Shown piece by piece: positions 17,457 through 63,959 of a stretch of DNA of 64,000 bases. Positions within the stretch are counted from its first letter, which is position 1. Each line of letters starts with the position of its first letter. The notes under the pieces are model-generated. The model was not told the DNA's origin. It made no database searches and saw nothing but the letters and a program-made list of their open reading frames with translations. The translations under genes and the position numbers were made by a program. The DNA comes from a virus (lineage: Duplodnaviria; Heunggongvirae; Uroviricota; Caudoviricetes): positions 27,069-91,068 of IMG/VR virus record IMGVR_UViG_3300027782_003987. The stretch is one strand, 5' to 3'.

Positions 17457-17793
17457 AGAAGAACTTTTAGAATTTTATAAAAACTACAATTGGTCTGATC
17501 CTGCCCCGATTCATTACCGGTTATATCACGACGATGAAGGTACTCCGTTGTTTTACAGTCAGGAAGATTTGCCCGGTAAGTACATTGATATCACGCCCCG
17601 ACAGTTTGCATTGCAGGACATGGAAGCACGAGTAGTTGATGAAAAACTCATCCGCGTCAGGATTTCCTGGTTAAACAAAGTTGTACATGCAGATTCAGGC
17701 ACACTTTGCCACCACAACGATGTAACCATCGTAGTTGATCAACAACCCGGACAGTATTGGAAGAAAAAAGAAAATGTCGTTGAAACAAATTGA
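17449..17793 (+). CDS. hypothetical protein
   Basis: ATG at 17449 overlaps the upstream stop (ATGA). The ORF is listed from 17416. Confidence 0.45.
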   Translation: MNEEELLEFYKNYNWSDPAPIHYRLYHDDEGTPLFYSQEDLPGKYIDITPRQFALQDMEARVVDEKLIRVRISWLNKVVHADSGTLCHHNDVTIVVDQQPGQYWKKKENVVETN

Positions 17794-29040: not shown

Positions 29041-29041
29041 T

Positions 29042-32463: not shown

Positions 32464-32561
32464 ATTGGATTAAAAGAATGTGGGCCAAGATCACACTAGA
32501 AATTCGCTATCGTAAAAAATTGCGAGAACTTCGTAAACGAGATCCGTTCATCTACAAATGA
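32460..32561 (+). CDS. small basic hypothetical peptide (33 aa, MNWIKRMWAKITLEIRYRKKLRELRKRDPFIYK)
   Basis: ATGA overlaps with both flanking genes, filling the gap between 32463 and 32558. Under 60 aa, so absent from the ORF track. Confidence 0.3.
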   Translation: MNWIKRMWAKITLEIRYRKKLRELRKRDPFIYK

Positions 32562-34033
32562 ACTATGTAGGAATATCTGCTGGATTCCATGATGCCGCTG
32601 TAAGTGTGATCAATCAGGCTGGCGATATCTTATTTGCTGCTCATAGCGAACGCTACAGCAAGAAAAAGCACGACAAGGATATCTGTGAAGATCTCATACT
32701 AGATGCGTTAGCGCATACAGATTCCGATAAACTAGAGTATCACTACTACGAACGCCCGTGGATTAAAGCCATGCGACAACTACGCAGTGGCGAAGGATTC
32801 TCATGGCCCAGTTGGGATCGACTGCTAGGATCTGCATACAGAATCATAGGGCGGCCTCAGATACATACTCATGGGCATCACCTGTGTCACGCAGCAGCAG
32901 GATTCCAGACCAGTCCATTTGAGGATGCCACTGTGGTGGTGATAGATGCCATTGGTGAGTTTGATACCATAACCATTTGGGATGCTTGGTATGAAAACGG
33001 GCAAGCCAAATACAAAAAAGTGTGGAGCCTGGGATATCCCAATAGCATTGGATTATTTTACTCGGCCATGACTGCCCGTGTGGGACTCAAACCCATGGAT
33101 GAAGAATACATACTCATGGGCATGGCAGCATATGGCGAACCTGTGTATCTTGACGAGATACGGAAGCAACTGCTAGATCTATCAAAAGGCTTACACTTTA
33201 AAAAGAATCTACACATTGGTGTAGACGATGATTTCTTGCCTCATGCTGATCCTGCAAACATTGCCAGCACAGCACAATTTCTAGTGGAAAGCATGATCCG
33301 AGATGTTCTACAAAAGGCCAGAGAGCATGGGCGCAGCCGTAATCTAGTATACGGCGGTGGTGTGGCATTGAACTGCCTGGCCAATAGATTCTTAGGACAA
33401 TACTATGAAAAAATTTGGATCATGCCTAATCCGGGGGATGCTGGCAATAGTCTCGGTGCTAGTTGTTTGGCTCATGGTGGCCGTGTTAATTGGCGAGATG
33501 CTTTTCTCGGGCATAATATACCCGGTGCTTACCCGGTAAACGAAATCTTGGATTATCTAGTCACAGACAAGATCGTGGGTGTGGCATCGGGCCGTGCAGA
33601 GTTTGGCCCAAGAGCATTAGGAAATCGTAGTCTACTAGCAGATCCTCGAGGGCATTCAATAAAGAACCGAGTGAATGAGATCAAACGTCGACAAAAGTTC
33701 CGACCATTTGCACCAGTGATTCTAGAAGAATATGCAGCAGAATACTTTGACATGCCGCCTAACTTTAATACCAGCCCATACATGCAGGTAGTGGCCGACT
33801 GCCGCAATCCAGAACTATTCCCAGCCATTGTGCATGTGGATGCCACCAGCAGAGTGCAGACCGTGCCTCGAGATGGATCGGGTATTCGCCAACTATTAGA
33901 AAAATGGTATGTGATGACCGGATGCCCTATGCTGTTAAACACCAGTCTCAACATTCGCGGAGAGCCTATGGTCAACGATCCTGGGGATGCTGATCGATTC
34001 CAGCGGGTTTACGGAATCAAGGTCTGTAGCTGA
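32558..34033 (+). CDS. carbamoyltransferase (NodU/CmcH family)
   Basis: N-terminal GISAGFHDAAVSV...AAHSERYSKKKHD is typical of NodU/CmcH O-carbamoyltransferases; 491 aa. Confidence 0.7.
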   Translation: MNYVGISAGFHDAAVSVINQAGDILFAAHSERYSKKKHDKDICEDLILDALAHTDSDKLEYHYYERPWIKAMRQLRSGEGFSWPSWDRLLGSAYRIIGRPQIHTHGHHLCHAAAGFQTSPFEDATVVVIDAIGEFDTITIWDAWYENGQAKYKKVWSLGYPNSIGLFYSAMTARVGLKPMDEEYILMGMAAYGEPVYLDEIRKQLLDLSKGLHFKKNLHIGVDDDFLPHADPANIASTAQFLVESMIRDVLQKAREHGRSRNLVYGGGVALNCLANRFLGQYYEKIWIMPNPGDAGNSLGASCLAHGGRVNWRDAFLGHNIPGAYPVNEILDYLVTDKIVGVASGRAEFGPRALGNRSLLADPRGHSIKNRVNEIKRRQKFRPFAPVILEEYAAEYFDMPPNFNTSPYMQVVADCRNPELFPAIVHVDATSRVQTVPRDGSGIRQLLEKWYVMTGCPMLLNTSLNIRGEPMVNDPGDADRFQRVYGIKVCS

Positions 34034-37955: not shown

Positions 37956-38819
37956 GTTTTTTACTTGTTGAACTATGTTGGCCACATGAGCAGCCTGCTC
38001 GATGTCACTGCTGGGTGTTTGCCGAGAATGTATACAATCGATCCAATGCTCGAGTTCGGCTTCTAATGGTGTGATACCGTCGAGATATGTTTCAACTGGA
38101 TTCTCGTGCGCCACAGCACGATTGTTGATGATCAGATTCTTCTTCACAGTCACAGCATTCACATCTTGATCCCAAACAATCTGTCCTTGTGTGCCGATGA
38201 ACACAGTTTGCCTGGTGCGAACAGGCCAATGCCAACTCACATCAACATCAAAAGTCACACCATCAGCATACCCGCTGAATGACACTCGGTCACATTGTGG
38301 TCCTTGGGCATAGTTCCATGCCTGGGCATGAGTGACTGTAGGGTGGGGGCATACCTGTAGCAATATACTGATGTCATGCACTGCAAGACTCAACAGTGGA
38401 TCCGTTTTGGTTTGGTAGATACCCCAGTTCAATCTACGGCTGGTCACATGCTGTAATTTTCCTATCACACCTTGATCGATCAGAGAACGGATCTCATGCA
38501 TCTGTGGATGATGCACAAACAAATGTCCCACCATGAGCAACTGCCCAGGTTGTAGATACCGTTGTATATCAGCGATTTGATTCACTGTTTCGGCCATGGG
38601 CTTTTCTACATACACATCATGCCCACGTTTTAACAGTTCTACAGTTTGCTCGTGATGTTGCCACAATGGTGTGGCCAACATAACTGGATCCTTTGTTGTG
38701 ATATCCGCAATGGTTTGTCCATTGCGGATATCAATGACCTGTGCGGTCACATCAAACTTCTTCAAAGTTTCCAACAATTTAGATCCCCAATAACCCGCAC
38801 CAACCAACCACATGTTCAT
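37947..38819 (-). CDS. Gfo/Idh/MocA-family NAD(P)-dependent oxidoreductase (sugar dehydrogenase-like)
   Basis: N-terminal Rossmann motif MWLVGAGYWGSK; 290 aa. Confidence 0.6.
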   Translation of the reverse strand: MNMWLVGAGYWGSKLLETLKKFDVTAQVIDIRNGQTIADITTKDPVMLATPLWQHHEQTVELLKRGHDVYVEKPMAETVNQIADIQRYLQPGQLLMVGHLFVHHPQMHEIRSLIDQGVIGKLQHVTSRRLNWGIYQTKTDPLLSLAVHDISILLQVCPHPTVTHAQAWNYAQGPQCDRVSFSGYADGVTFDVDVSWHWPVRTRQTVFIGTQGQIVWDQDVNAVTVKKNLIINNRAVAHENPVETYLDGITPLEAELEHWIDCIHSRQTPSSDIEQAAHVANIVQQVKNLL

Positions 38820-39931
38820 GCAAAGAACTCCTTGACACTATTAGCAACATGATCAAGTTGATCTTGAGTCATGCTATACCAACAAGGCAGGCTCAGTATT
38901 TCTTTCACTGTGGTCTCTGCTACTGGGCATGGAGAATACCATGCTTGATATGCCGGTTGTTGATGTGTGGTAGTGGCATAATGCACATTGGTCTGGATAC
39001 CACGATCCGCTAAAAACTGTTTCAATGCATCTCTCTGCGGTGTTTGTATCACATATACATAATGTCCTTGGCCCACACGTGGATCTCGATGTATGGTTTT
39101 AACAATATCACTTAGTCTTTCATCATACCATGAGCAGATCGCTCGCTTTCGATTGATCCAATGCACCAGTTTGGGCAACTTGGCCAGCACAATGTTGCTT
39201 TGCATGTTGTCAATTCTAGCATTGTATCCCAGTTCTACTATGTCATAGCGTCCTGTGCGACCGTGATCTCGATACATACGCACCCGGTCCATGAGTTCTC
39301 TACTGCCGGTCACACAACCGGCATCGCCCATGGCACCAAGATTCTTCACCGGGTTAAAACTAAAGCAGGTAAGATCAGCTATACTTCCAATCTGTTGACC
39401 ACGCCATTGTGTTCCTAGACTGTGAGCAGCATCTTCAATCATCACTAGATCGTTTAATACGCAGATCTCTTTTATGCGATCCAGATCCGGACATTGCCCA
39501 TACATGTCTACCCAAAGAACTGCTCGTGTTCTAGAGGTAATCTTTGATAGCATTAGGTGCAGGTCCATGAGATGCGTGGCAGGATCAATGTCCACAAACA
39601 CAGGTCGGGCACCCACCATAACAATGGCTTCTGTGGTGGCCACAAAGGTGTGTGGAGTGGTCAATACTTCGTGTCCTGGACCAATACCGGCTGCCCGTAA
39701 TGCACAGATTAGGGCCATGGTTCCTGATCCTGTGCTGGCACAATCTTCAGCACCAACATATTCGGCCATTGCTGCTTCAAACACAGTGACATCAGGACCT
39801 GTGATGTAGCTGCTACTGGCGATAGTTTTTTCTATGGCCTGATCTATCTCTGTTTTACAATCGAGATACTGTTGTTGTAAATTTGTAAATGATATGTTCA
39901 TAATTTCCAATACGGACTGGTAGTGAACCAC
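38816..39931 (-). CDS. DegT/DnrJ/EryC1/StrS-family PLP-dependent sugar aminotransferase
   Basis: Fold-type I sugar aminotransferase pattern (...FSFNPVKNLGAMGDAGCVTG...) and 371 aa length. Confidence 0.65.
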   Translation of the reverse strand: MVHYQSVLEIMNISFTNLQQQYLDCKTEIDQAIEKTIASSSYITGPDVTVFEAAMAEYVGAEDCASTGSGTMALICALRAAGIGPGHEVLTTPHTFVATTEAIVMVGARPVFVDIDPATHLMDLHLMLSKITSRTRAVLWVDMYGQCPDLDRIKEICVLNDLVMIEDAAHSLGTQWRGQQIGSIADLTCFSFNPVKNLGAMGDAGCVTGSRELMDRVRMYRDHGRTGRYDIVELGYNARIDNMQSNIVLAKLPKLVHWINRKRAICSWYDERLSDIVKTIHRDPRVGQGHYVYVIQTPQRDALKQFLADRGIQTNVHYATTTHQQPAYQAWYSPCPVAETTVKEILSLPCWYSMTQDQLDHVANSVKEFFA

Positions 39932-51362: not shown

Positions 51363-51596
51363 TCAATATTTGCGGTGATGACTGCGAGAAACCACATCTT
51401 GCGGCTTGTAAAGCCAACTGCGATCTACAAATCCTTGCTCAATTTCGCGCAGAGCAGTTACAGCGTGGCTGGAAACTTTGGTAACTTTGGGCATGTCTCC
51501 ACGGGCTAATTCTCGGGCTCGACGTGCTGCGACCAGCACCATTTCGTAACGGTTTCCGATCATTGCTACTGCGTTTTGACTGGTGATTCTTGCCAT
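51363..51596 (-). CDS. rpoZ: RNA polymerase omega subunit (RpoZ)-like protein
   Basis: [29 protein letters not shown]...ALREIEQG aligns to bacterial RpoZ ([29 protein letters not shown]...ALREIEEG). Confidence 0.6.
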   Translation of the reverse strand: [77 protein letters not shown]

Positions 51597-51647: not shown

Positions 51648-51971
51648 CTAGTCAATCTTATTGTAGCCAATTTTATTCTTAGTCACCATCAGGTCATCGG
51701 TGCAGCCGGTGCATCTTGATCGATTGCATATAGTAGGTTGATCAAGTAATCGCCACCCGGAGGTTAGATTACCCAAGTGGTCATTTTGGCATTGCCCACC
51801 ATATACATTGTTGTCAGTGTCTATGTAGAGCCTGCTGTAACCAACTTCGCACTCCCATCCTGACCAATGGTCTAGATCTTGGTTGTGTAGCCAATTTGCA
51901 TCAACACGATATCTCTGTGAATCAGACAATACCAGTTCGCAATTATAAAATTCATGTGTTGGGTATTGCAA
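51648..51971 (-). CDS. SPASM/twitch-like Cys-rich domain ORF, probably the frameshifted C-terminus of the upstream rSAM gene (PqqE-like)
   Basis: CEVGYSRLYIDTDNNVYGGQC...HLGNLTSGW...CNRSRCTGC fits the SPASM consensus. Only a TTG start is available and it overlaps the rSAM ORF by 20 nt in another frame. Confidence 0.45.
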   Translation of the reverse strand: MQYPTHEFYNCELVLSDSQRYRVDANWLHNQDLDHWSGWECEVGYSRLYIDTDNNVYGGQCQNDHLGNLTSGWRLLDQPTICNRSRCTGCTDDLMVTKNKIGYNKID

Positions 51972-52584
51972 GATTCAATTTACCTTTCATGATAGGGATC
52001 GCACGGGTCTGAAAGCCATAATCAATTTCGTTAACATTGTGGCTTATGTTGTGATCTGTCAGCAACTTTTGATAGTGTGGAATCCGATCTTGATTCCATG
52101 TTTCATTCATGATGTTCACATGTATGAATTTATCACTATGGATGTTTTTGTGTAGTTTGACAACGGTATCAAAGAACCTTTGTTCGTTGATATGTTCTGT
52201 GTGGGTGCTAAATGATATGTTGTCCACAACTTCAAACAATTTGAGATAATAATTGTAGGTCGCACTACCATTAGTAGTTAGTAATATTTGCTTTATGTTG
52301 TCTGCGTATTCTTCTCGTAACCATCGTATCAATGGATAAAATGCTCGATTACCAGTGACCTCTCCGCCGGTAAAACCGATCTTGTATTTGAGGTTGCGAT
52401 GACTGCTTTGATTATAGATGCTGATCCAATTGGATTTAAGCTCATCTAGGCTCTTGTGTTTGCTGGTATCGTCATGCCACTGAGTAGGGCAATACATACA
52501 ATCGTAATTACATCGACGACCTAGTTCCCAAGTGATTGAGAAACACTTGTCTGTGGGTAATATCTTTACTAGTTCCGGCTGCAT
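51952..52584 (-). CDS. radical SAM enzyme core (PqqE-like, lacking a SPASM domain in this frame)
   Basis: CNYDCMYC CxxxCxxC and GFTGGEVT GGE motif. The local pattern ITWELGRRCNYDCMYCPT resembles PqqE LAELTYRCPLQCPYCSN. Confidence 0.7.
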   Translation of the reverse strand: MQPELVKILPTDKCFSITWELGRRCNYDCMYCPTQWHDDTSKHKSLDELKSNWISIYNQSSHRNLKYKIGFTGGEVTGNRAFYPLIRWLREEYADNIKQILLTTNGSATYNYYLKLFEVVDNISFSTHTEHINEQRFFDTVVKLHKNIHSDKFIHVNIMNETWNQDRIPHYQKLLTDHNISHNVNEIDYGFQTRAIPIMKGKLNLAIPNT

Positions 52585-53892: not shown

Positions 53893-54069
53893 TAAAATAA
53901 AATAACGATACCAGTCATTACCGCTAATGCCAGCAGTGAAACAACTATACTATAGAACGCTGTCTTTGTCAATGACCAACGCTCTTTTTCTTCCATCTTT
54001 CGCCAAGCAGTGATACCAAAATGTATCACCACTGCAAAGATAACAAATGCTAACCAAAGTCTAATCATT
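53893..54069 (-). CDS. small two-TM membrane protein (58 aa), possible NfeD-like partner of the SPFH protein
   Basis: AGGAG SD 7 nt before the ATG. Hydrophobic sequence MIRLWLAFVIFAVVIHFGITAW...; immediately upstream of the SPFH gene. Confidence 0.45.
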
Positions 54070-54138
54070 CGGCAACTCCTGAATATGTGTCGTTAACAGT
54101 TTTATTGTACACGAAGAGCCCGGGTGTGTCAACCAAAA

Positions 54139-54160
54139 AAAAGCCCACCGAAGTGGGCTT
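54139..54160 (-). terminator. terminator hairpin after the tmRNA coding piece (plausibly bidirectional)
   Basis: AAAAGCCCACCGAAGTGGGCTT flanked by T-runs on both strands. Identical to the element at 52876. Confidence 0.55.
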
Positions 54161-54174
54161 TGGTTGTTTTGATG

Positions 54175-54560
54175 ACAAGGTAAGTCCTACCTCGGAGATC
54201 ATGCTGCTAGAGCGAAGATCTCATCGTTAGATGCGTTTGCATTTAAAGGTTTTGCGTCTACGGCCGGGAATCCCCAACCCTACGGCTTCTGCTTTGCCGA
54301 GCTGTCCACTCTGTTACTTGTTGCCCTGTCGAAACCATGGCAGGCCCATCAAAAGCATATTGTAAAATCACTTGCGAAAACATCGAAACGCCAAGGTGAT
54401 CGGTCTTTCGAATACACACCGCAATATGCTTGTGGTGGACCTGGCGGGAGTCGAACCCGCGTCCAGAACACTTTTCTCTTTGCTTCATACAGCAATAACT
54501 TTCAACACTATACGGTCTATCCATGCTACTTCTTGGAGAGGTTGCATGTGGTGTACCAGC
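54175..54560 (-). ncRNA. ssrA: two-piece, circularly permuted tmRNA (ssrA): acceptor piece ~54560->54425, intervening hairpin 54424->54348, coding piece 54347->~54175 with tag ANASNDEIFALAA
   Basis: The acceptor piece ends GCGGGTTCGACTCCCGCCAGGTCCACCA (T-arm, acceptor 3' strand and CCA). The coding piece starts GGGCCTGCCATGGTTTCGACAGGG (compare E. coli GGGGCUGAUUCUGGAUUCGACGGG), which pairs with CAGGTCC and includes a G3.U70 pair. The tag frame GCA AAC GCA TCT AAC GAT GAG ATC TTC GCT CTA GCA GCA TGA lies at 54199..54240. A 10-bp inverted repeat (aagcatattg/caatatgctt) brackets the intervening segment. The outer boundaries are approximate. Confidence 0.8.
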
Positions 54561-54764
54561 CCTGAGATTTGATACAATCTAATCTTCTATAGTGCTAACT
54601 CTTATTTATCGCCAAGTTTTTTTAGCGATCCAATGTTGTATCTCTTGCACACGCCACGCTAGTCCCTGGGGCAGTGTGAAAAATATCTTATTACCACTAG
54701 GAGTATACATGGTTTTACCATCGTTGTCAACACCCATCAATCCTATAAACATATCGTCTCCTTT

Positions 54765-55547
54765 TTACAATCGATTCTTATTCTGCCGGGCTAACCAGTG
54801 ATCATAGATCTCGAAATATTGATCTGGATCAACAATGTCAACCAGGTCTGTGATACGAGATCTGAACCGAATTGGATCCAACAGATCACTGAGATCAATG
54901 CTCTCATCAAAATCATATGAACATTCTCGCGGTGGGAATTGCACCCCACCGGCTAGGGCTTGTTCGTGATACCATGCACCCAGTTGTTTATTGCGTCCCA
55001 GTTCAATGAACCATTCACGCTGTTCGGGAGTCTTGGCTGCCGCATTAAGAAAGTTTTCACCAATGTCATCGCGGGTGAGATAGTCGTCGGCATCCAGCAC
55101 TTTGTAGCAGAATGAATCTAACACAAATAGCCAATGCTGTTTATAATAGGTCACACCAATGAGTTTTACACGATCCTTGAAATGTGATTTGATCAGTCTT
55201 GCTTGTTCAATGTCGCATACGTTAAAGAAAAATGGTTTCTCTAAGTTGGATACCCGTTCTAGATCCTGTTGCCAGTTACGACTATACCAATGTCGATACG
55301 GTGTGCAGGGAAACTGCTCTAATACAGAGTTATCCCAAGTCACAGTGGCTCTACCAGCAGCATTGATTCCGCTGTATCTCACAGCAGAAATGATATCAGG
55401 ATTCAAGGTCCAGGCAGTGCTGATGATGTCGCCACCTGAACCTGCGGTATGGTATAGGATGGTTCCTGTTTGCATTGTTTTATTTAGTGGTGCTCCTAAC
55501 AAGAATTGAACTTGTAGCTCGCCCTTACCAAGGGCGTGTATTGCCAT
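54765..55547 (-). CDS. hypothetical protein, possibly glycosyltransferase-like (DxD VLDADDYL)
   Basis: 260-aa ORF. The true start may be the internal MQTGTILY. Confidence 0.45.
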   Translation of the reverse strand: MAIHALGKGELQVQFLLGAPLNKTMQTGTILYHTAGSGGDIISTAWTLNPDIISAVRYSGINAAGRATVTWDNSVLEQFPCTPYRHWYSRNWQQDLERVSNLEKPFFFNVCDIEQARLIKSHFKDRVKLIGVTYYKQHWLFVLDSFCYKVLDADDYLTRDDIGENFLNAAAKTPEQREWFIELGRNKQLGAWYHEQALAGGVQFPPRECSYDFDESIDLSDLLDPIRFRSRITDLVDIVDPDQYFEIYDHWLARQNKNRL

Positions 55548-55565
55548 TATACTATAGGAGCATGT

Positions 55566-55640
55566 TGGTCTCCGCGACCAGAATTGAACTGATATTTAAG
55601 TCTTAGGAGGACCTCGTTCTATCCTTTGAACTACACGGAG
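55566..55640 (-). tRNA. tRNA-Arg (anticodon CCU)
   Basis: Manual fold: acceptor CTCCGTG/CGCGGAG (C1-G72), D-arm GTTC-AAAGGATA-GAAC, anticodon loop CTCCTAA, T-arm ATCAG-TTCAATT-CTGGT, CCA encoded. Confidence 0.65.
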
Positions 55641-55645
55641 CGGAA

Positions 55646-55720
55646 TGGCCGGCCCTGAGAGGATCGAACTCCCACCTCCGGGTTCGAAGCCCGGAATGAT
55701 ATCCATTTCACCAAAGGCCG
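55646..55720 (-). tRNA. tRNA-Arg (anticodon UCG)
   Basis: Manual fold: acceptor CGGCCTT/AGGGCCG, anticodon arm CCGGG-CTTCGAA-CCCGG, T-arm GGGAG-TTCGATC-CTCTC, CCA encoded. Confidence 0.65.
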
Positions 55721-55790
55721 ATGTAAAAGAACCCTGCCGTAACATGCAACATTAGAAGAGGTTGCATGCCAGAGGGCAGAGCCGTGTTGT

Positions 55791-55878
55791 TGGCGGAAGC
55801 GGTGAGATTCGAACTCACGGACCCTTGCGAATCGCTAGTTTTCAAGACTAGAGCCATAGACCACTCGACCACACTTCC
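55791..55878 (-). tRNA. tRNA-Ser (anticodon UGA), type II
   Basis: Acceptor GGAAGTG/CGCTTCC, anticodon loop CTTGAAA, long variable arm, T-arm GTGAG-TTCGAAT-CTCAC, CCA encoded. Confidence 0.7.
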
Positions 55879-55886
55879 TGGATTGT

Positions 55887-55961
55887 TGGAGCGGGCAACG
55901 AGAATCGAACTCGTAACTTAACTTTGGCAAAGTTATGTGTTACCACTAGCACCATGCCCGC
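55887..55961 (-). tRNA. tRNA-Gly (anticodon GCC)
   Basis: Acceptor GCGGGCA/TGCCCGC, anticodon loop TTGCCAA, T-arm ACGAG-TTCGATT-CTCGT, CCA encoded. Confidence 0.7.
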
Positions 55962-55971
55962 TTATGTTGTT

Positions 55972-56000
55972 ATTATATATTCAAATTTGATTGATGTCAA
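55972..56000 (-). promoter_or_regulatory. consensus sigma70 promoter TTGACA-N17-TATAAT driving the tRNA block Gly-Ser-Arg-Arg
   Basis: Minus strand reads TTGACAtcaatcaaatttgaataTATAAT. The -10 ends about 10 nt before the tRNA-Gly 5' end, and the element overlaps the 3' end of the rSAM ORF. Confidence 0.6.
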
Positions 56001-57024
56001 TCTTCTTAGTAGCATTGACTCGCCTCACGCTGTGACTGATCCCACAATACTGTCTGCAAGGTCTCATTAGATTTCTCACCGGTTCGGCACTCTCCCACAA
56101 ATGTGCGAGATCACCCCGTTTACCAATCTTGAAACTGGGAAACTGATCTGAAAAACACAGTCGGGCAACACCGTCCATATTGACCATGATGTTGCGATCA
56201 AAACTATTACATATGGCATCTTCTGTGCCGTCGCCATCCCAACCTGTGACAGCATCCTGATTCCGAAACACACTGCGATGATACTTGCGAACTGTTTCCA
56301 TGTATTCAGGATCCAGATTCAACTGGTATTTTTCTGTACAGTGATTCAAGATCTCAAACAATGTTTCATGATCACGGATCACATTGTTGTCGTAGAACTT
56401 GTCAGGTCTTGGATCACCATTCCGGTCCAGTAATGTGCCAAATGTGGGCTGCAACCAGTTTAACTTTAACTTGTCTGCCTTTAGATCATTCAACACAAAG
56501 TCATAGAACTGATCTAGGTCCTTGTAATTCTGTTCGCACATCACGCTCATGGCGTAGATGGGTGTGTTGCTGTTTAATTCTTTTCTTGCCTGCAACAACA
56601 ACCGGATAGCGTTCACTGCTAGGTCAAATGATCCTGTGACTCCGCGGGTGGAATCATGCACCTCAGGGATATAACTGTTTAGAGATATTGTTATTTCACT
56701 TGGGCCTTCGGTGAGTAATCTCCGAGCAAAACGAAGATCAGTGACCATGGTACCGTTCATCACGCTTAGACATCGTAATCCTAGTGAGCGGCACTGCCTT
56801 GTTATGGGCCAATACCTTTCGGGATTCATCAATGCTTCACCACCACAGATCACCACAGCCCCTTGGGGATTCAGTGTGCTGAACTCTGCGATGATATCAC
56901 TACGCTGTTCAATAGATATATGTGTGGGTAATACGACTTCTTCCCGTGTCCAATACATGCAGGTCTTGCATTTGAGATTGCATTGTAGGTTGATATCTAA
57001 GAACAGGAACTTGGGTGGTTGCAT
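55981..57024 (-). CDS. radical SAM enzyme with a C-terminal twitch/SPASM-like domain
   Basis: N-terminal CNLKCKTC and VICGGEALM motifs. C-terminal MDGVARLC...IGKRGDLAHLWES...CRQYC. Confidence 0.75.
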   Translation of the reverse strand: MQPPKFLFLDINLQCNLKCKTCMYWTREEVVLPTHISIEQRSDIIAEFSTLNPQGAVVICGGEALMNPERYWPITRQCRSLGLRCLSVMNGTMVTDLRFARRLLTEGPSEITISLNSYIPEVHDSTRGVTGSFDLAVNAIRLLLQARKELNSNTPIYAMSVMCEQNYKDLDQFYDFVLNDLKADKLKLNWLQPTFGTLLDRNGDPRPDKFYDNNVIRDHETLFEILNHCTEKYQLNLDPEYMETVRKYHRSVFRNQDAVTGWDGDGTEDAICNSFDRNIMVNMDGVARLCFSDQFPSFKIGKRGDLAHLWESAEPVRNLMRPCRQYCGISHSVRRVNATKKIDINQI

Positions 57025-57718
57025 TATCTATTTAACACAACATTCTCGGGTTTGACTCCGTGCTCGTTGCTGCTGCTCAACAACCATGCCTTCTCGTGTT
57101 GGACTTGGATTCTAGGATCTGCCCATACTTGGTATCCTGCGTTTATTGCTCTGTGGCAGAATCCTGTGTCCTCGGATAGGAAAGCGGTTGTATCATCTTT
57201 GATTTCGTATTCAACGGGTTTGAAGAATGGGCATTCCATGGATTCAAACACACCTTTTTGCACAGCCATAAAGCCCATGCCAGAAGCAGCCAACTGGAAT
57301 CTATATCCATTCACATGCACCATCTCTCGTGGTAACCATAGCAAGTCGGTTTTACTATCACTGTGGAACACTGCCTGTGCATAAGTTTTGTTGTCGTGCT
57401 GTATATAGAATCCAGTGACGATCCGGTGTTCAGGAACACTGATTAACTTTTCAAGATCCTCGGGTGTCCAGATGTTATCGTTGTCAATCCAGATGATCCA
57501 ATCGTAATCTAGCACACCGTTGAATGGCTGGAAGGTCCTTGGCGGATTTCCTGTGGCACCCAACAGCATGTTTCTACAGTTGTAGATCACTGGCGAATAT
57601 GCATTTATCGTCACATATTCTATGTTGTTTTTATAAAGCCAGCGTATGGTCGAATTCCATGCGTTCATCCAGTTCTTGCTGAATGATTGACCAGGAAAAC
57701 AAAAAACTAATTTCATTT
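57024..57718 (-). CDS. glycosyltransferase-like protein (DxD DNDNIW)
   Basis: The listed ORF (to 57782) would overlap tRNA-Ser. The ATG at 57718 (MKLVFCFPG) sits just below the tRNA. Confidence 0.5.
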
Positions 57719-57725
57719 TAAATAT

Positions 57726-57812
57726 TGGCGGAGAGTGTGGGAGTCGAACCCACTCGCCCCTTTCGGAGCGTCGGATTAGCAATCCGATGCCTTACCATCC
57801 AGCCCACTCTCC
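57726..57812 (-). tRNA. tRNA-Ser (anticodon GCU), type II
   Basis: Acceptor GGAGAGT/ACTCTCC, anticodon loop TTGCTAA, long variable arm, T-arm with TTCGACT, CCA encoded. Confidence 0.7.
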
Positions 57813-57821
57813 AATGTTGCT

Positions 57822-57850
57822 ATTATATAGCAAAATTCAAAACAAGTCAA
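57822..57850 (-). promoter_or_regulatory. sigma70-like promoter TTGACT-N17-TATAAT for tRNA-Ser(GCU)
   Basis: Minus strand reads TTGACTtgttttgaattttgctaTATAATagcaacatt followed by the tRNA 5' end. Confidence 0.55.
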
Positions 57851-58048
57851 TCAAAATCGAGCACTGCATCAAGTTTAAGGGCAGTCAGGTTCAACACCCG
57901 GAGCCCTCCAGTCACATATTTAGATGATGACTACTCACCTCCCTAATCTGGGTCAGAGGCACTGGTTTCAATTTTTGGTCCCTTGCAGTTGGGCCCATCG
58001 TCAATGAGTTTTTAACTCGCCCGATTTGATTGATCTTAAATATTCCTG

Positions 58049-58321
58049 ATGTTGAAGCAACACATACCTCGTAACCTACGACAACGAATCATCGAACGCG
58101 ATGGGCCTCGGTGTGTGTATTGTGACGAAGATCTCAGCAGTGCCGAAATCCACATGGATCATGTGATACCTGAATCACAGGGTGGAGAGACCACTTACAA
58201 CAATCTGCAAGTGACCTGCCGCAAGTGTAATCTTGCCAAGGGCGTTCTCACCGAAAGTGAATTCACACAACGACTCAGGACTCGTGCTTCTAACATTCTA
58301 AATAGACTTGGAGCGGGGTAG
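58049..58321 (+). CDS. HNH endonuclease
   Basis: CVYCDEDL...HMDHVIPESQGG...NLQVTCRKCNLAKG HNH motif. The 3' end overlaps tRNA-Gly(UCC) on the other strand by ~13 nt. Confidence 0.75.
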   Translation: MLKQHIPRNLRQRIIERDGPRCVYCDEDLSSAEIHMDHVIPESQGGETTYNNLQVTCRKCNLAKGVLTESEFTQRLRTRASNILNRLGAG

Positions 58322-58382
58322 GAGAATCGAACTCCTGACATCAACTTGGAAGGATGAGGTAATACCATTTTACGAACCCCGC
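58309..58382 (-). tRNA. tRNA-Gly (anticodon UCC)
   Basis: Acceptor GCGGGGT/ACCCCGC, D-arm GTAA-AATGGTA-TTAC, anticodon loop CTTCCAA (one T.T mismatch in the stem), T-arm AGGAG-TTCGATT-CTCCT, CCA encoded. Confidence 0.6.
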
Positions 58383-58454
58383 GGTATTGGGATGGGCTTC
58401 TCACCCAATTGACCCTAAACGGGCTGTTGACGGCTCTCTTTCACGCCGCCCAGG

Positions 58455-58937
58455 TTAGGCTGCTTTGCGATTGCTCAGCACCCAATCTAGTCTGTCTGCT
58501 GCATAACTAGCAGCGAACGCTCTTGGCTTGACCATTGGAATCACATTACAAGTTCCTTTTATATATCCAATTGCCTGGTTTACTACCACAGAACTCTTGT
58601 GCATCTGATCAGGGTTGATGTCCAAGTGGACTTCAACTAAACGATCTTCTAACACATCTGCCATCTTCTGGAACAGTTCACTTACCTTGTAAACTTCATT
58701 CATCAGTCGCATGCTGGGCTTATCGCTGCGTTGATCCCAGTCGCGTTCACGATGCACTTCACCAAAGATCTTGCAACCATGACAGCTATCGATATGTACA
58801 ACTACCGCCAGAGCATAGTCGGCATGCCATATGCCATCTACTTTGACTCGTTCACTATCGCAGCCCAGATACACACTGGTTTCAGGACTTTGAGCATGTA
58901 TAAATGCTTTGACTTTTTCTAGGTCCATTTTTTTCAT
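58455..58937 (-). CDS. hypothetical protein
   Basis: 160-aa ORF. Confidence 0.45.
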   Translation of the reverse strand: MKKMDLEKVKAFIHAQSPETSVYLGCDSERVKVDGIWHADYALAVVVHIDSCHGCKIFGEVHRERDWDQRSDKPSMRLMNEVYKVSELFQKMADVLEDRLVEVHLDINPDQMHKSSVVVNQAIGYIKGTCNVIPMVKPRAFAASYAADRLDWVLSNRKAA

Positions 58938-58943
58938 GATTCA

Positions 58944-58975
58944 CTTTCTTTGTTGGCGTACCCACTAGGACTCGA
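58944..58975 (-). pseudogene. tRNA 3'-half fragment (T-arm, acceptor 3' strand and CCA only)
   Basis: AAGTCTAGGTTCGAGTCCTAGTGGGTACGCCA. No matching 5' half nearby. The 3' acceptor end GGGTACGCCA is identical to that of tRNA-Trp at 59449, which lies on the other side of an HNH gene. Confidence 0.45.
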
Positions 58976-59001
58976 ACCTAGACTTTTGTATAAATAAACA
59001 T

Positions 59002-59448
59002 ATGAAATGTTTACATTGTTCTAACCCACTAAGTGGTTATCAAAAAAAGTTTTGTTCGAGTTCCTGTTCGGCTATTCATTCTAACTTACTTACTCCACGC
59101 AGAACTAAAACTAATCCTTTGTGGCACGATTGTCCTACTTGCGGTAAGCAAACACGGAACATTCGCTACTGTTCCAATGAATGCAAACCTAAACTAACTC
59201 CGCAAGAAAGATATGCTAAACATAAAGCCATGCATAACGAAGCCTGGCACCGCTATATGGCTAAACGAAAAAATCAAACACCCAAGAGTGTTGATATAAA
59301 AGCATTACAACAGTTCTATATAAACTGTCCTGATGGACACGAGGTAGATCATATTCATCCTGTATCTAAAGGTGGGTTGCACACCTTGGAGAATTTACAA
59401 TATCTTACGATATCAGAAAACAGGAAAAAATCTAACAAACTAATATAG
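59002..59448 (+). CDS. HNH endonuclease
   Basis: Cys4 N-terminus plus HEVDHIHPVSKGGLHTLENLQYL HNH-N motif. Embedded between the tRNA fragment and tRNA-Trp. Confidence 0.7.
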   Translation: MKCLHCSNPLSGYQKKFCSSSCSAIHSNLLTPRRTKTNPLWHDCPTCGKQTRNIRYCSNECKPKLTPQERYAKHKAMHNEAWHRYMAKRKNQTPKSVDIKALQQFYINCPDGHEVDHIHPVSKGGLHTLENLQYLTISENRKKSNKLI

Positions 59449-59522
59449 TGGCGTACCCTGAGAGATTTGAACTCCCACCGACGGTTTTGGAGACCGATAT
59501 GCTGCCGTTACACTAAGGATAC
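59449..59522 (-). tRNA. tRNA-Trp (anticodon CCA)
   Basis: Acceptor GTATCCT/AGGGTAC, anticodon loop CTCCAAA, T-arm GGGAG-TTCAAAT-CTCTC, CCA encoded. Confidence 0.6.
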
Positions 59523-59538
59523 ATTTCACATTACACTT

Positions 59539-59630
59539 TGGTACGAGCGGAGAGGATCGAACTCTCTCAAGAACGCTAATCTGGCGCTAAAAGGCGTATA
59601 AGACCTCTCTGACTCCCAAGTCTCGCTCGC
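59539..59630 (-). tRNA. 92-nt tRNA-like gene of unresolved identity (possible anticodon UAU, or a type II or intron-containing tRNA)
   Basis: Clear acceptor GCGAGCG/CGCTCGT-A-CCA (G1.U72) and T-arm GAGAG-TTCGATC-CTCTC. The D and anticodon arms do not fold canonically by hand. Confidence 0.4.
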
Positions 59631-59636
59631 ATTGTC

Positions 59637-59711
59637 TGGTCCGGCGTAACAGAATCGAACTGCTATCTAGGGAGTAGAAATCCCCTGTATTATCCATTAT
59701 ACTAACGCCAG
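59637..59711 (-). tRNA. tRNA-Arg (anticodon UCU)
   Basis: Acceptor CTGGCGT/ACGCCGG, D-arm GTAT-AATGGATA-ATAC, anticodon arm GGGGA-TTTCTAC-TCCCT, T-arm AGCAG-TTCGATT-CTGTT. Confidence 0.65.
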
Positions 59712-59713
59712 AT

Positions 59714-59752
59714 AAATTTACTCTGATATTCTCTGTAAATTTACTTTGATAT
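59714..59752. repeat. tandem 17-nt direct repeat (AAATTTACTCTGATATT / AAATTTACTTTGATATT) between tRNA-Leu and tRNA-Arg
   Basis: Seen directly in the sequence; approximate coordinates. Confidence 0.5.
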
Positions 59753-59839
59753 TGGTACGACTGACCGGACTCGAACCGGTACGCCCTTACGGACATCAGA
59801 TTTTAAGTCTGAGGCGGCTACCTATTTCGCCACAGTCGC
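59753..59839 (-). tRNA. tRNA-Leu (anticodon UAA), type II
   Basis: Acceptor GCGACTG/CAGTCGT (G1.U72), D-arm GCG-AAATAGGTAGC-CGC, anticodon arm TCAGA-CTTAAAA-TCTGA, 15-nt variable arm, T-arm ACCGG-TTCGAGT-CCGGT. Confidence 0.7.
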
Positions 59840-59845
59840 GTTGTT

Positions 59846-59919
59846 TGGTCTCGGTAGGAAGAATCGAACTTCCGCTTCATGCTCCCAAAGCACGGGTGAT
59901 ACCATTTCACTATACCGAG
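59846..59919 (-). tRNA. tRNA-Pro (anticodon UGG)
   Basis: Acceptor CTCGGTA/TACCGAG with the C1-G72 typical of tRNA-Pro, D-arm GTGA-AATGGTA-TCAC, anticodon loop TTTGGGA, T-arm GGAAG-TTCGATT-CTTCC. Confidence 0.7.
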
Positions 59920-59925
59920 TAGACC

Positions 59926-60004
59926 TGGTTGCGGAGGCAGGATTCGAACCTGCGATCTCCAGCTTATGAGACTGGCGGGGACGACCGGACTCCCCTACTC
60001 CGCG
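59926..60004 (-). tRNA. tRNA-Met (anticodon CAU), possibly initiator (C1xA72 mismatch)
   Basis: Acceptor CGCGGAG/CTCCGCA-A-CCA gives a C1-A72 mismatch. D-stem GGGG/CCCC, anticodon loop CTCATAA, T-arm GCAGG-TTCGAAT-CCTGC. Confidence 0.6.
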
Positions 60005-60686
60005 ATATTCTTTCTATCCTGGGCAAAAACACTGGATCTATTCTTTCACAGATACCAGCAGCTAGATCAATCTGATATTGCTTGCAAGGCACTGTGTTCT
60101 GATCTTGATGATCATGATGCTGATAATGTTCTGATCTTTCGTATTGATCATACAACGGATCAGAAATGTTTGAAATGATCGAGCTCAACACAGATCTCTG
60201 CGATTCGGTCCACGGTATGTCATATGCCTGCAATACTATGAACTCAATGTTGCGTGACTGACACCAATCCTGCAACAGCATGACCTTACAAAATACATCT
60301 TGTGCTTCTAACCCCGGACTTGCTAACCATTGATTATACAATCTTTTTGATTTGTGGTCAACACTATGACTGCTGGGCCATATGCCTCGGAATGTAAAGT
60401 TTCTCAACGAATCGGATTCAACCAATTCAGTTTGTCTTTGTGCATCAACTTCTACATCCAATTTGCCTGTGCTGGTCAGTTGCAGGATCACTTGGTTGAT
60501 CAAAGCATCTTCTAGTAGTTTTAAGAATGCTTGATTCAAGATCCATTGATTGCTCACTGCTGGACCTCCTGCATCAACAAGGTCGACCCCTACGGATCTC
60601 AGCACATTGACCCAGGTCTTTCTTTCCTGCCCGCCAAAGCTGAATCCGCAACCACTAACTAAGACTTTTTTGTTTGATAACGACAT
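59964..60686 (-). CDS. hypothetical protein
   Basis: 240-aa ORF. Its C-terminal ~40 nt overlap tRNA-Met, so the real stop and the overlap need checking. Confidence 0.45.
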   Translation of the reverse strand: MSLSNKKVLVSGCGFSFGGQERKTWVNVLRSVGVDLVDAGGPAVSNQWILNQAFLKLLEDALINQVILQLTSTGKLDVEVDAQRQTELVESDSLRNFTFRGIWPSSHSVDHKSKRLYNQWLASPGLEAQDVFCKVMLLQDWCQSRNIEFIVLQAYDIPWTESQRSVLSSIISNISDPLYDQYERSEHYQHHDHQDQNTVPCKQYQIDLAAGICERIDPVFLPRIERISRSRGVRSSPPVS

Positions 60687-61488
60687 TGATTGTATTTAAG
60701 TGATCAACTACTACCGCCTGTGATCTGTTTGGACACTGACCGCATACCGATTCCGGCACTCCTATGCCAGCGATAAATCGATCAAGATTCACCGCATCCG
60801 AGCAAGGTTCGTAATCAAACCAATTCTCTCCTGTGATATCCATCACATTTGCCACTGCTGGACATTTATACAATCGTCCCTTATACAATATTGGTGTGTC
60901 GGGAGATCCGCATATAGCATGTGACTCAGCTGGCTCGCTCATCCAAGGAGAGATTCTATTTTCTTCCAATCTAAATGGAACCACAAAATCTTTGAAAACA
61001 CTCTTGTAAATTTTAAAATCGCCCAACTGCCAAGATATTTGGCAATGATCCTGCGGATCTTCACTTACCTGTGTCTGCCATCCTTTGCGTGTTAGCAGGA
61101 TGTTTTTTATAGCCTGATCGATTATGTTTCGATGATCTGCCCGGTGCATGCTGACCTGCATCTCAAATGGCTCAAAATCAAACCAAGCCGCACTATCAAA
61201 ATTCTTTAGTAGATACCCATTGGTTATAAGGCGTATGATTGCTGTGGGCCATGATTTTCTTACCCGTCTACATATCTCTATCAATTCAGGATGCAAACAA
61301 GGTTCGCCTCCAAACAAGGTCACTACCTTGGGTTGCAATATTGTGCTCCAGTGCTCTATCCACATGGTGATGTCGTTGAGTCTGGCCACGCCATTTCTTG
61401 GCAAGTCACTGAGACTGATACAGCCACGGCAGCTGATATTGCAGGAATATGCGATCATGATATCTAATCTTGGAATCTTTTTAGGCAT
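60655..61488 (-). CDS. radical SAM enzyme with a C-terminal twitch-like domain
   Basis: CNISCRGC and TLFGGEPCLHPEL motifs. C-terminal GRLYKCP...CGQCPN. Confidence 0.75.
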   Translation of the reverse strand: MPKKIPRLDIMIAYSCNISCRGCISLSDLPRNGVARLNDITMWIEHWSTILQPKVVTLFGGEPCLHPELIEICRRVRKSWPTAIIRLITNGYLLKNFDSAAWFDFEPFEMQVSMHRADHRNIIDQAIKNILLTRKGWQTQVSEDPQDHCQISWQLGDFKIYKSVFKDFVVPFRLEENRISPWMSEPAESHAICGSPDTPILYKGRLYKCPAVANVMDITGENWFDYEPCSDAVNLDRFIAGIGVPESVCGQCPNRSQAVVVDHLNTINVVIKQKSLS

Positions 61489-62283: not shown

Positions 62284-62970
62284 TTAAAAATTGATTCTAT
62301 TCTTATCGTAATTAAATTTGATTACATTAGCATTGTCAGTATCAGTGATCTTCATTATACGTCTATATGTTTGTCCTAACACAATGTTATATTTTGCAGG
62401 ATCCTCGTAAGGAAAATGCGGAGCAATAGATGAGACTATAACACTTTTCTGATTGTGTTCGGCTAGCCCCATCATGAGAGCATTCTGATAAGATTTACTT
62501 CCTATATAACCAACATGATGTGCATATCTTGCTGTATACGCATTTTCATCAAACCTAGCATAGGTAAGACCAGTGGTCATAAAAACTATCCTATCACCGC
62601 TGGTCATTTTCGACAATGCTTTTATTGCAAAAAAGTGCGGACAAATTACTTGTATCTGTAAAGACTCTCGGTATGCAGTTGCAGGAACAGTAGAGGTCTC
62701 GGTGAACATCTGTGTTTCGTTTGGAATATCCACATAATTTGAATTATACAACATCATATCTAAATGAGCAACCTCTTTGGTCAACGCATCAAATGCATTG
62801 TTCATTGACTCAATGTTATTGAAGTCTGCAAATATCTGGTTTGGCTCTACTTTCTTACTGTGTCCATGTGATATTGTAAAAACATCATGCCCATCATCAC
62901 ATGCAAGTTCACAGAAATCTTTACCAAATTTTCCCGAGGTTTGTCCAGGGCCAATCACTAATATATTCAT
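62284..62970 (-). CDS. hypothetical Rossmann-like protein
   Basis: N-terminal MNILVIGPGQTSGKFG; 228 aa. Confidence 0.45.
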   Translation of the reverse strand: MNILVIGPGQTSGKFGKDFCELACDDGHDVFTISHGHSKKVEPNQIFADFNNIESMNNAFDALTKEVAHLDMMLYNSNYVDIPNETQMFTETSTVPATAYRESLQIQVICPHFFAIKALSKMTSGDRIVFMTTGLTYARFDENAYTARYAHHVGYIGSKSYQNALMMGLAEHNQKSVIVSSIAPHFPYEDPAKYNIVLGQTYRRIMKITDTDNANVIKFNYDKNRINF

Positions 62971-63959
62971 GAAGTCACTAATTTCCTTATTGAAATCTTC
63001 TTATGTCCTGCTGCAAATGGTTCAGCAGAAGGATTTTCCGGACACAACCTACATTGTTCAATGCTATGTCCTCGTTGAAGATTAGTTAAAAAACTTGTCA
63101 ATCGTTCATCACTCCAGGACAATTCAGCAGCCTGATAACTGTTGACTAGATCTCGTTGTTGATCGGTCATCGATACAGGAAACTGTTTTATGAACTCTGG
63201 TAATACAGTAGTGACACCGCACTTGTACAAGCGTCCTTGGAAAAAATGATGCGACCATTTAGAAAAACATGCGCTGGCTGCTCGATCAGGATCACTCATG
63301 TGAGTCAATGATAACTTACCAGTGTCTGCACTATAACCAACCGCTACATTATCAAAGCTATTGGCCACACCATATTTTACAAGGATATTATTATCGTCAC
63401 AGTAAGAGAATTCATATGTGGGGTCGTCCCATATATGCAATCCGTATTTCTGATCTACGAATTTAAATTGTTCGCTGTGATCCGGAGATTGTGTAAAGTA
63501 CCCGGGCTCAGGGTGTTCAACTCGATCGGGGTTCACATAGTATTTTCTATATGGTCCTGGATAAAATTTTTCAATCCTTGACAAGGTCGCAGCAGTTTGG
63601 TCTGCATTATGTCTATTGACATTTATTCGAATACGGCCTTGATATTCTAATAGAAGATCATACAAACCAGGCCAACGGTCAAATTGCGTACCATTGGTCA
63701 GAATCTGAATACTACTTTTAGGCCATAACTCAGCTATTCCTCGTATCCATTTTTCTAATCCTGGATTCAATAATGGCTCACCACCAAGAATTCCAATGTT
63801 TGACACGTTTAATTTCTTACTCCATTCCTGATATTCTTCAGCATGGTCGTCCCAATCAAGATGACCAGAGAATGCATAGTTGTTGTATCGATTGCATCTC
63901 GAACAATTGAGATTGCACACATTGGTGATATAAAATTCACAGTAATCAAGATTGAACAT
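62967..63959 (-). CDS. radical SAM enzyme with a C-terminal twitch-like domain
   Basis: CNLNCSRC and GILGGEPLLNP motifs. C-terminal GRLYKCG...CRLCPENP. Confidence 0.75.
   Translation of the reverse strand: MFNLDYCEFYITNVCNLNCSRCNRYNNYAFSGHLDWDDHAEEYQEWSKKLNVSNIGILGGEPLLNPGLEKWIRGIAELWPKSSIQILTNGTQFDRWPGLYDLLLEYQGRIRINVNRHNADQTAATLSRIEKFYPGPYRKYYVNPDRVEHPEPGYFTQSPDHSEQFKFVDQKYGLHIWDDPTYEFSYCDDNNILVKYGVANSFDNVAVGYSADTGKLSLTHMSDPDRAASACFSKWSHHFFQGRLYKCGVTTVLPEFIKQFPVSMTDQQRDLVNSYQAAELSWSDERLTSFLTNLQRGHSIEQCRLCPENPSAEPFAAGHKKISIRKLVTS

Follow-up and report, generated by a model that had tools for sequence, protein, structure and literature searches.

The biology of two-piece transfer-messenger RNA (tmRNA) was reportedly established by Keiler, Shapiro and Williams in 2000 and by Sharkady and Williams in 2004. 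Catalogues of phage tmRNAs go back to at least 2014 (PMC4131195), reports of huge phages that have both tmRNA and SmpB followed in 2020 (PMC7162821), and 53 unique two-piece tmRNAs, in lineages shared with host lineages, were described in 2022 in deposited phages that are mostly aquatic (PMC9004378). The tmRNA database of 2025 holds 79 phage sequences and introduced the model RF04321 (PMC11915505). Here, a further case is described from a stretch of 64,000 nucleotides (nt), hereafter the window, which covers positions 27,069 to 91,068 of the IMG/VR virus record IMGVR_UViG_3300027782_003987 and is part of a phage genome of jumbo-phage-like character. As judged from its sequence, the circularly permuted tmRNA gene (ssrA) on the minus strand of the window is real and complete, and it is presumably two-piece. 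With high confidence, it is regarded as a functional gene of a large, uncultured phage, adjoining an array of 13 tRNA genes. This kind of element is already known, the window gene being one more well-supported example that will not surprise a specialist, and an earlier sequence-only reading of the locus overstated the case in calling it notable in itself, as phage tmRNAs, the two-piece form included, had been published (PMC9004378, PMC7162821, PMC11915505).

The betaproteobacterial two-piece tmRNA, described by the Rfam model RF01850, shares with the window gene the permuted order, the tRNA-like domain, the UGGUUUCGACAGGG junction, the proximal helix of P2, a tag of ANDE-FALAA type, the CCUUGU...CAAA motif after the tag and the 3' terminator hairpin. 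It differs in the acceptor stem, which is GGGCCUG/CAGGUCC in the window and GGGggUG/CAccUCC in the consensus, while the window gene has a spacer of 85 nt, about 60 nt longer than that of the model, a three-codon insertion in the tag, two hairpins before the tag, and middle P2 segments and a post-tag hairpin that mismatch the consensus. The window gene is also phage-borne, and the residence on a betaproteobacterial chromosome that a beta_tmRNA would lead one to expect is not observed.

Cultured Stenotrophomonas phages of the genus Menderavirus (Marzo, MZ326868; Bhz51, OR797040; Yut2/Yut3) likewise carry a permuted, beta-type tmRNA among tRNA genes, that of Marzo scoring 94.6 bits with RF01850 and 119 bits with RF04321, and related matches were also obtained in Xanthomonas and Alcaligenes phages. 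Read by eye, the Stenotrophomonas phage genes share with the window the acceptor-piece motif UGUAUGAAGC, the bracket stem, the UUGAU leader before GGG and the UAAAU before the tag. However, identity reaches only about 80%, and only over the 75-nt acceptor piece; their acceptor stem is GGGGAUG/CAUCUCC, their tag is AANDDSYTVRIAA-like, and their genomes of about 160 kb show no DNA-level relationship to the window. Over the homologous region, the annotation of several deposited phages reads "hypothetical protein" or "tRNA-Leu".

Marine phages such as the OM43 phage Melnitz and pelagimyophages also encode a permuted ssrA (Buchholz et al., 2022, PMC9004378), although the Melnitz gene is of alphaproteobacterial type and is coupled to a glutamine riboswitch (PMC9004378), whereas the window gene is of the beta subtype and has no riboswitch match. 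Huge and jumbo phages (Al-Shayeb et al., 2020, PMC7162821), such as Xanthomonas phage XacN1 and Bacillus phage G, resemble the window in combining a large genome with tRNA arrays and a tmRNA, and some huge phages encode SmpB (PMC7162821), which was not found in the window. Between Bacillus phage G and the window there is only a 39-nt match in the T-arm. The tmRNA of phage G is presumably one-piece.

Anatomy of the gene

ARAGORN called a permuted tmRNA (tmRNA*) at 54108-54525 on the minus strand. The model RF04321 (tmRNA_permuted) was matched over its full length (1-213) with 112.9 bits against a gathering score of 47 (E 3e-21), and RF01850 (beta_tmRNA) with 105.4 bits against a gathering score of 84 (E 4.8e-31), the latter being the winning model within the Rfam tRNA clan and retained over the other clan members. 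The circularly permuted, acceptor-piece-first tmRNA proposed by the sequence-only reading, presumably two-piece, is thus borne out by the very detectors that it had suggested as a check. Two of its particulars have to be revised: the likeness to alphaproteobacterial and marine cyanobacterial genes gives way to a best model that is betaproteobacterial, and the gene, which had been bounded at 54175-54560, runs past that start to a terminator at about 54132.

In the direction of the gene, the elements follow one another as the P2 3' strand, T-arm, acceptor 3' strand, CCA, spacer, acceptor 5' strand, D-loop analogue, P2 5' strand, two hairpins, tag frame, hairpin and terminator. The acceptor piece, ending in CCA, therefore precedes the coding piece, which starts at G1, and no tRNA 5' half is present upstream of the T-arm and acceptor 3' strand, just as had been noticed from the letters. 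The individual features are as follows.

54507..54512, minus strand: candidate -10 element TATAGT, before the acceptor piece; corresponds in alignment to UAuAAU, the -10 of the RF01850 consensus, and is identical in the related viral contig L061
54433..54497, minus strand: acceptor piece, from Rfam alignments, sequence and pair counts; 5' end approximate
54493-54489, minus strand: P2 distal strand GCUGU of the acceptor piece, from Rfam alignment and pair counts
54470-54464, minus strand: P2 proximal strand UGUUCUG of the acceptor piece, from Rfam alignment and pair counts
54460-54444, minus strand: T-arm GCGGG-UUCGACU-CCCGC, from the sequence
54443-54437, minus strand: acceptor 3' strand CAGGUCC, from the sequence
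54436 and 54435-54433, minus strand: discriminator A and encoded CCA, from the sequence
54348..54432, minus strand: intervening segment of 85 nt, presumed excised, from the minimum-free-energy fold and relatives
54301..54347, minus strand: 5' part of the coding piece, starting GGGCCUGCCAUGGUUUCGACAGGG at 54347, from Rfam alignments, sequence and pair counts
54347-54341, minus strand: acceptor 5' strand GGGCCUG, followed by the D-loop analogue CCAUGGUUUCGA
54328-54322 and 54305-54301, minus strand: P2 proximal strand CAGGGCA and P2 distal strand ACAGC of the coding piece
54299-54283, minus strand: first hairpin (hp1) CGGC-AAAGCAGAA-GCCG, in the place of pseudoknot PK1, from covariation
54279-54262, minus strand: second hairpin (hp2) GGUUGGG-GAUU-CCCGGCC, in the place of PK1, from covariation
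54199..54240, minus strand: tag reading frame of 13 codons, ANASNDEIFALAA, with resume codon GCA at 54240-54238 and stop codon UGA at 54201-54199
54176..54194, minus strand: post-stop hairpin (hp3) CGAGGUA-GGACU-UACCUUG, from fold and covariation, followed by the single-stranded tail CAUCAAAAC
54132..54161, minus strand: intrinsic terminator AAAGCCCAC-UUCG-GUGGGCUUU with U-run, stem at 54161-54140, from a terminator scan; 3' end of the gene

The tRNA-Ala-like domain is complete, with a 7-bp acceptor stem, the discriminator A, the 3' CCA and the T-arm. Its strands GGGCCUG and CAGGUCC pair at 7/7 positions, the third pair being the alanine identity pair G3.U70, which confirms the perfect pairing first read there. 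At the other end of the gene, the terminator is matched by the 3' hairpin of RF01850. Besides the two tmRNA models, no other RNA family, riboswitches included, was found by Rfam above its gathering score in 53900-54800. A riboswitch or other RNA family in or beside the gene, as in Melnitz, was rejected as a candidate, the Rfam E-value scan of the same interval having returned only sub-threshold, terminator-driven matches to isrB, TarB, rsmX and STnc350.

Two open reading frames (ORFs) overlap the tmRNA gene, one of 88 residues (54258-54524, minus strand) and one of 66 residues (54372-54572, plus strand), and both are almost certainly spurious. The interval is best annotated as ssrA (two-piece) rather than left empty or assigned to the 88-residue ORF. 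The neighbouring Band-7 protein occurs as an identical copy in five metagenome samples of the Joint Genome Institute (JGI), and the gene callers used there leave exactly the tmRNA interval empty. JGI samples in which this phage is present are 3300027763, 3300009159, 3300009180, 3300009152 and 3300009160.

Relatives and covariation

Relatives were collected by scanning viral contigs with the 25-mer GGTTCGACTCCCGCCAGGTCCACCA, which gave at least 120 loci; ARAGORN recognised a permuted tmRNA in at least 101 of them (102 in total with the locus of Marzo, L001, which is counted separately). The structure was tested in a non-redundant set of 85 sequences. An unconstrained fold of the single sequence failed to recover P2, and the pairs defined by Rfam were tested explicitly. 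In the 7-bp proximal part of P2 (54470-54464 with 54328-54322), 100% of the cells were paired, against 32-57% in slid-partner controls, with up to 4-5 standard pair types per position, up to four Watson-Crick pair types at one position and three pairs that change on both sides. The distal part (54493-54489 with 54305-54301) was paired in 96% of cells, with exchanges between CG and UA. When pairs were counted over the whole tested structure in 22 diverse sequences, covariation was 0.197 against 0.099±0.009 after shuffling, a value that none of 500 shuffles reached, and slid controls gave at most 0.066. Distal P2 scored only 61% in this smaller count because the ungapped 5' ends are out of register in the 22-sequence alignment. 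The acceptor stem and T-arm are invariant across the viral relatives, in part because the search pattern fixed them.

Covariation extends beyond P2. Among 19 non-redundant relatives, both hairpins before the tag covary, hp1 by CG/GC and CG/GC/UA swaps and hp2 by GC/AU (10 against 8), the hp2 loop being a GNRA tetraloop in most relatives. The post-stop hairpin alternates between GGGUA/UACCU and GGGGC/GCCUU, and the terminator stem also covaries, with the UUCG loop kept in most relatives. A further covarying hairpin, AGCAG...CUGCU, lies at the stop codon in relatives.

The spacer between CCA and the 5' GGG (54432-54348) measures 85 nt, not the 77 nt first given, and this length is ordinary, since spacers in relatives range from 53 to 273 nt. 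It is closed by a 10-bp stem, AAGCAUAUUG (54431-54422) with CAAUAUGCUU (54362-54353), which forms in the minimum-free-energy fold, and an unpaired UUGAU leader sits between this stem and the mature G1. Among relatives, 82 unique spacers carry a stem of 10-12 bp directly after CCA, in differing sequences and with a median z of -3.15, followed by an unpaired UGAU or UAAU before G1. To judge by these compensatory changes, the inverted repeat of 10 bp, which the sequence-only reading had placed around an excised segment, is a real and conserved feature of the permuted tmRNA family. The conserved closing stem and the unpaired leader before G1 lend indirect support to the predicted cleavage of the precursor into two RNAs.

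Resume codon and tag

The resume codon is taken to be the GCA at 54240, because of its conserved UAAAU|GCA context and its offset from G1. The motif CGUAGA(A/C)GCAAAA...UAAAU|GCA AAC stands 107-109 nt from G1 in most close relatives (144 nt in one, L093) and 107 nt in the window, and UAAAU or UAAAC precedes GCA in 79 of the 88 relatives in which the tag can be located. From this codon, the frame starts at alanine without a start codon or Shine-Dalgarno sequence and ends in a hydrophobic ...LAA and a stop, and the tag is exactly that first read, ANASNDEIFALAA. A longer tag in the same frame, AKPLNANASNDEIFALAA with the prefix AKPLN, was reported by ARAGORN; it is an over-extension, of a kind also seen in L093 and L106, that the conserved resume context rules out.

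The commonest tag of the family is ANDEQFALAA, and almost all family tags end in a hydrophobic residue, AA and stop, as does ANDEIFALAA of the locus L078. The three-codon insertion of the window tag is common to the loci L120, with the tag ANASNDEVFALAA, and L023/L066, with ANAANDEVYALAA. Much longer conserved tags, of 28-31 residues (for example ANADTFDFSAMSFTGNTVSGKSKVALAA and ANADTFDFSAMSFTGNTVRGAANESRFALAA), occur in the IMG/VR loci L010, L012, L018, L020, L039, L057, L085 and L103, among others, and a second group of the permuted tmRNA family has tags of about 27 residues such as AKANTFEYFQVPVTLATANDAEFAIAA.

Proposed mechanism and alternatives

The proposed steps take as their basis the two-piece tmRNA biology cited in PMC9004378 and PMC11915505. 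One precursor would be transcribed, from a weak promoter of its own or by read-through, and would end at the terminator near 54132. RNase P would then cut 5' of G54347 and 3' maturation would trim the acceptor piece to the CCA at 54433, the spacer stem coaxially extending the acceptor stem and thereby bringing both cleavage sites together, and the two pieces would be held by the 7-bp acceptor stem and P2. Charged by the host alanyl-tRNA synthetase (AlaRS) via G3.U70 and delivered to stalled ribosomes by host SmpB, the RNA would let translation resume at GCA 54240, appending (A)ANASNDEIFALAA, so that the expected tag is AANASNDEIFALAA, and the C-terminal ALAA would send the product to ClpXP-type proteases. 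What the phage gains is conjectural: together with the tRNAs, the tmRNA might help to recycle ribosomes in late infection, a stage at which host ssrA is no longer transcribed and cleaved mRNAs give rise to non-stop messages.

For SmpB, the query was a hand-entered sequence of the E. coli protein. With this query, no SmpB was detected in the window (best tblastn E 0.5), nor in 1.0 Mb of related viral sequence covering about 5-10 kb around the gene in 121 loci. The tmRNA presumably relies on the SmpB of the host, since none was found in the window or near the gene in relatives.

Several points weigh against a functional two-piece tmRNA. The scan for sigma-70 consensus sites called no promoter directly upstream of the acceptor piece, and the -35 that would go with the candidate -10 element TATAGT is poor, leaving its status as a promoter uncertain; since the scan did not call this element, transcription by read-through from upstream genes is possible. 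The two mature ends are ones that we infer, the selective benefit to the phage is a matter of conjecture, and function would hang on a putative partner, the SmpB of the host. An all-against-all covariation scan gave no column pair in favour of the pseudoknot PK1, which tmRNAs usually have, immediately upstream of the resume codon. In the window, the 3' strand of the relatives' stop-codon hairpin is lost, a substitute GAGAUC/GAUCUC pairing being predicted in its place. Finally, the RF01850 alignment flags pairs as non-canonical ("v") within the middle segments of P2 and within the 3' hairpin. The phage family keeps a different post-tag hairpin.

As regards PK1, the scan gave two hairpins only before the tag, and relatives do not keep the CGGC/GACG pairing that the RF01850 alignment implies; a pseudoknot at this position was therefore rejected. 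The sequence-only reading had named pseudoknot and P2 pairing together as what covariance models should find; P2 stands, with strong covariation, and the pseudoknot does not, two hairpins being found instead. In E. coli, PK1 is functionally replaceable by a hairpin, and pseudoknots are reduced in two-piece forms, for which reason its failure does not bar the gene from the tmRNAs.

It could be argued from the missing PK1, from the lost stop-codon hairpin and from an RF01850 score only 21 bits over gathering that the locus is a decaying pseudogene, or a degenerate tRNA-Ala beside which the ALAA frame is coincidental, the latter having been named from the outset as what would overturn the tmRNA. 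This is extremely unlikely. Compensatory covariation, present in P2, in the hairpins hp1, hp2 and hp3, and in both the spacer stem and the terminator, contradicts it; moreover, the tag frame is intact and homologous to those of relatives, L120 among them, and L061 matches the leader, acceptor piece and spacer at 97-100% identity, whereas the flanking genes differ more.

A different function is improbable as well, though it deserves more weight than decay. The phage RNA might act as a decoy or modulator, competing with the host tmRNA for SmpB, AlaRS or stalled ribosomes and so blocking or re-routing host trans-translation; variants of this idea are that it stops the tagging of phage proteins, retags host proteins for amino-acid recycling, or senses the number of stalled ribosomes. 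Mycobacteriophage DS6A has a tmRNA consisting of the tRNA-like domain only, and a similar molecule inhibits endogenous tmRNA (PMC4131195, PMC11915505); selective tagging of host proteins was raised for phage Melnitz (PMC9004378), and a sensing role has been mentioned (PMC7162821). With SmpB not found nearby, the RNA must share that of the host, and throughout the family the tRNA-like domain stays the same although the tags are highly diverse, an invariance that is nevertheless partly imposed by the search pattern. A pure decoy, however, needs neither tag frame nor resume context nor hydrophobic-AA C-terminus, all of which are kept in about 85 relatives, and the window tag resembles ordinary proteobacterial degradation tags (ANDE-FALAA).

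Host lineage and distribution

The tmRNA gene had also been read as a clue to the lineage of the host. An exact scan with the 25-mer of one genome for each of 185,579 bacterial and archaeal species gave 22 occurrences, in tRNA-Ala genes and standard one-piece tmRNAs of Saprospiraceae, Terriglobia, Dehalococcoidia, Candidate Phyla Radiation (CPR) and other groups, and no permuted tmRNA with this tRNA-like module. As a guide to host lineage the 25-mer was rejected, because matches confined to tRNA-Ala genes and one-piece tmRNAs of unrelated phyla carry no host information. The clue proves weak, with the module in more than 100 viral contigs and in no permuted tmRNA of the species genomes, and with the beta type shared by Stenotrophomonas phages; for these reasons, the host cannot be told from the subtype of the phage gene. 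Stenotrophomonas is a gammaproteobacterium whose own tmRNA is presumably one-piece. Tags like ANDE-FALAA are typical of beta- and gammaproteobacteria, and the window tag may be taken as, at most, a soft hint of a proteobacterial host. Host prediction, in practice, should not lean on the subtype of a phage tmRNA, which is an unreliable marker.

The same scan bears on whether the gene is host DNA, either a bacterial ssrA or the remnant of an attachment site beside an integrated prophage, which is scarcely conceivable here. Such an origin would have precedent, tmRNA genes being frequent sites of prophage integration (PMC4383910, PMC4131195), and several viral loci, for example L014, L024, L038 and L047, do have the 25-mer at the end of a contig with no coding piece following it. 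The window gene, by contrast, is complete, with both pieces, tag and terminator; it has phage genes on both flanks and the tRNA array adjoining, its flanks are syntenic in the independent viral contig L061 of 104 kb, and no species-representative genome has a permuted tmRNA with this module.

A broader proposal, to which we lean somewhat less than to its contrary, is that the window gene forms part of a large clade of beta-like two-piece tmRNAs maintained in phages, evolving and spreading among them, jumbo phages included, independently of the tmRNA type of the host rather than by repeated capture from hosts. In such a clade, the tRNA-like domain (GGGCCUG.../...GGUUCGACUCCCGCCAGGUCCACCA) would be invariant, two hairpins would stand where PK1 is expected, the spacer would be closed by a stem and measure 53-273 nt, and the tags would have from 10 to more than 30 residues. 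If the proposal holds, tmRNA type would not report host lineage, and the infected cell would be made to use the phages' own degradation tag, with SmpB supplied by the host. The family of viral contigs may merit a dedicated comparative study, given its invariant tRNA-like domain, its variable and sometimes very long tags, and SmpB not found nearby.

Genomic context

The phage ssrA gene adds a well-resolved example of the translation-support modules of large phages, in which a tRNA array is joined by a tmRNA. The 13 tRNA genes, called by ARAGORN and Rfam, lie on the minus strand at 55488-60004, just upstream of the tmRNA. Two ARAGORN calls in this region are doubtful: a tRNA-Leu(gag) at 55620-55705 (plus strand), which overlaps two minus-strand tRNA-Arg genes, was not found by Rfam and is probably false, and a tRNA-Ile(tat) of 92 nt at 59539-59630 (minus strand), not reported by the Rfam tRNA model at gathering score, may be atypical, intron-containing or a miscall.

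Matches to PHROG and Pfam in the window include a virion structural protein, ThyX, an HNH endonuclease, an ATPase, a carbamoyltransferase, an aminotransferase and at least nine radical SAM proteins. The nearest relatives in culture are jumbo phages: the ATPase shares 49% identity with its counterpart in PA5oct-like Pseudomonas jumbo phages and matches Sinorhizobium and Agrobacterium jumbo phages more weakly. When 24 kb of the window were searched at near identity among deposited phages, only tRNA-sized matches came up, and for this reason no cultured phage is taken to be a close relative.

Contig L061, an IMG/VR contig, is syntenic with the window from 57.4 to 44.0 kb at 80-95% amino-acid identity and has, at the corresponding place, a tmRNA gene of 88% identity. 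Between window positions 54348-54620 (minus strand) and L061 positions 2220-2500, a leader of about 110 nt, the acceptor piece and the whole spacer are 97-100% identical, the spacer at 85/85 positions, while the tag region and flanking genes have diverged more, including a 9-nt indel. This pattern could reflect recent recombination or an unrecognised constraint on spacer and leader.

Directly upstream of the tmRNA lies an ORF of 48 residues (54605-54751, minus strand) with a strong ribosome-binding site, AAAGGAGA, which is also called by the JGI gene callers. It is probably a real small gene, since its differences from the L061 counterpart are mostly synonymous. Inside it stands a promoter-like, near-consensus site, TTGACA-17-TATACT (54730-54702). 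Directly downstream of the tmRNA terminator, before small ORFs, there are two 11/12 matches to the sigma-70 consensus on the minus strand, TTGACA-17-TACAAT and TTGACA-17-TATAGT (54104-54132 and 53944-53972), the first of which is conserved in L061 as far as the alignment extends. Such sites suggest that the region may be transcribed by the host RNA polymerase, as in early-type expression.

The density of radical SAM proteins is unusually high, with at least nine ORFs matching Radical_SAM or PHROG radical-SAM entries at 17735-32463 (plus strand) and at 51952-52584, 55981-57024, 60655-61488 and 62967-63959 (minus strand). Grouped with radical SAM ORFs are an aminotransferase (38816-39931), a Nol-like carbamoyltransferase (32558-34033) and a glycosyltransferase-like protein, which suggests a large phage-encoded modification or biosynthesis cluster. 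An ORF of 4,080 residues at 37-12279 (plus strand), with matches to FG-GAP and CBM5/12 repeats, probably encodes a giant fibre or adhesin-like virion protein. Lastly, a protein of 77 residues at 51363-51596 (minus strand) has a match to RNA_pol_Rpb6 (RNA polymerase omega-like) in the Pfam annotation of the identical JGI gene.

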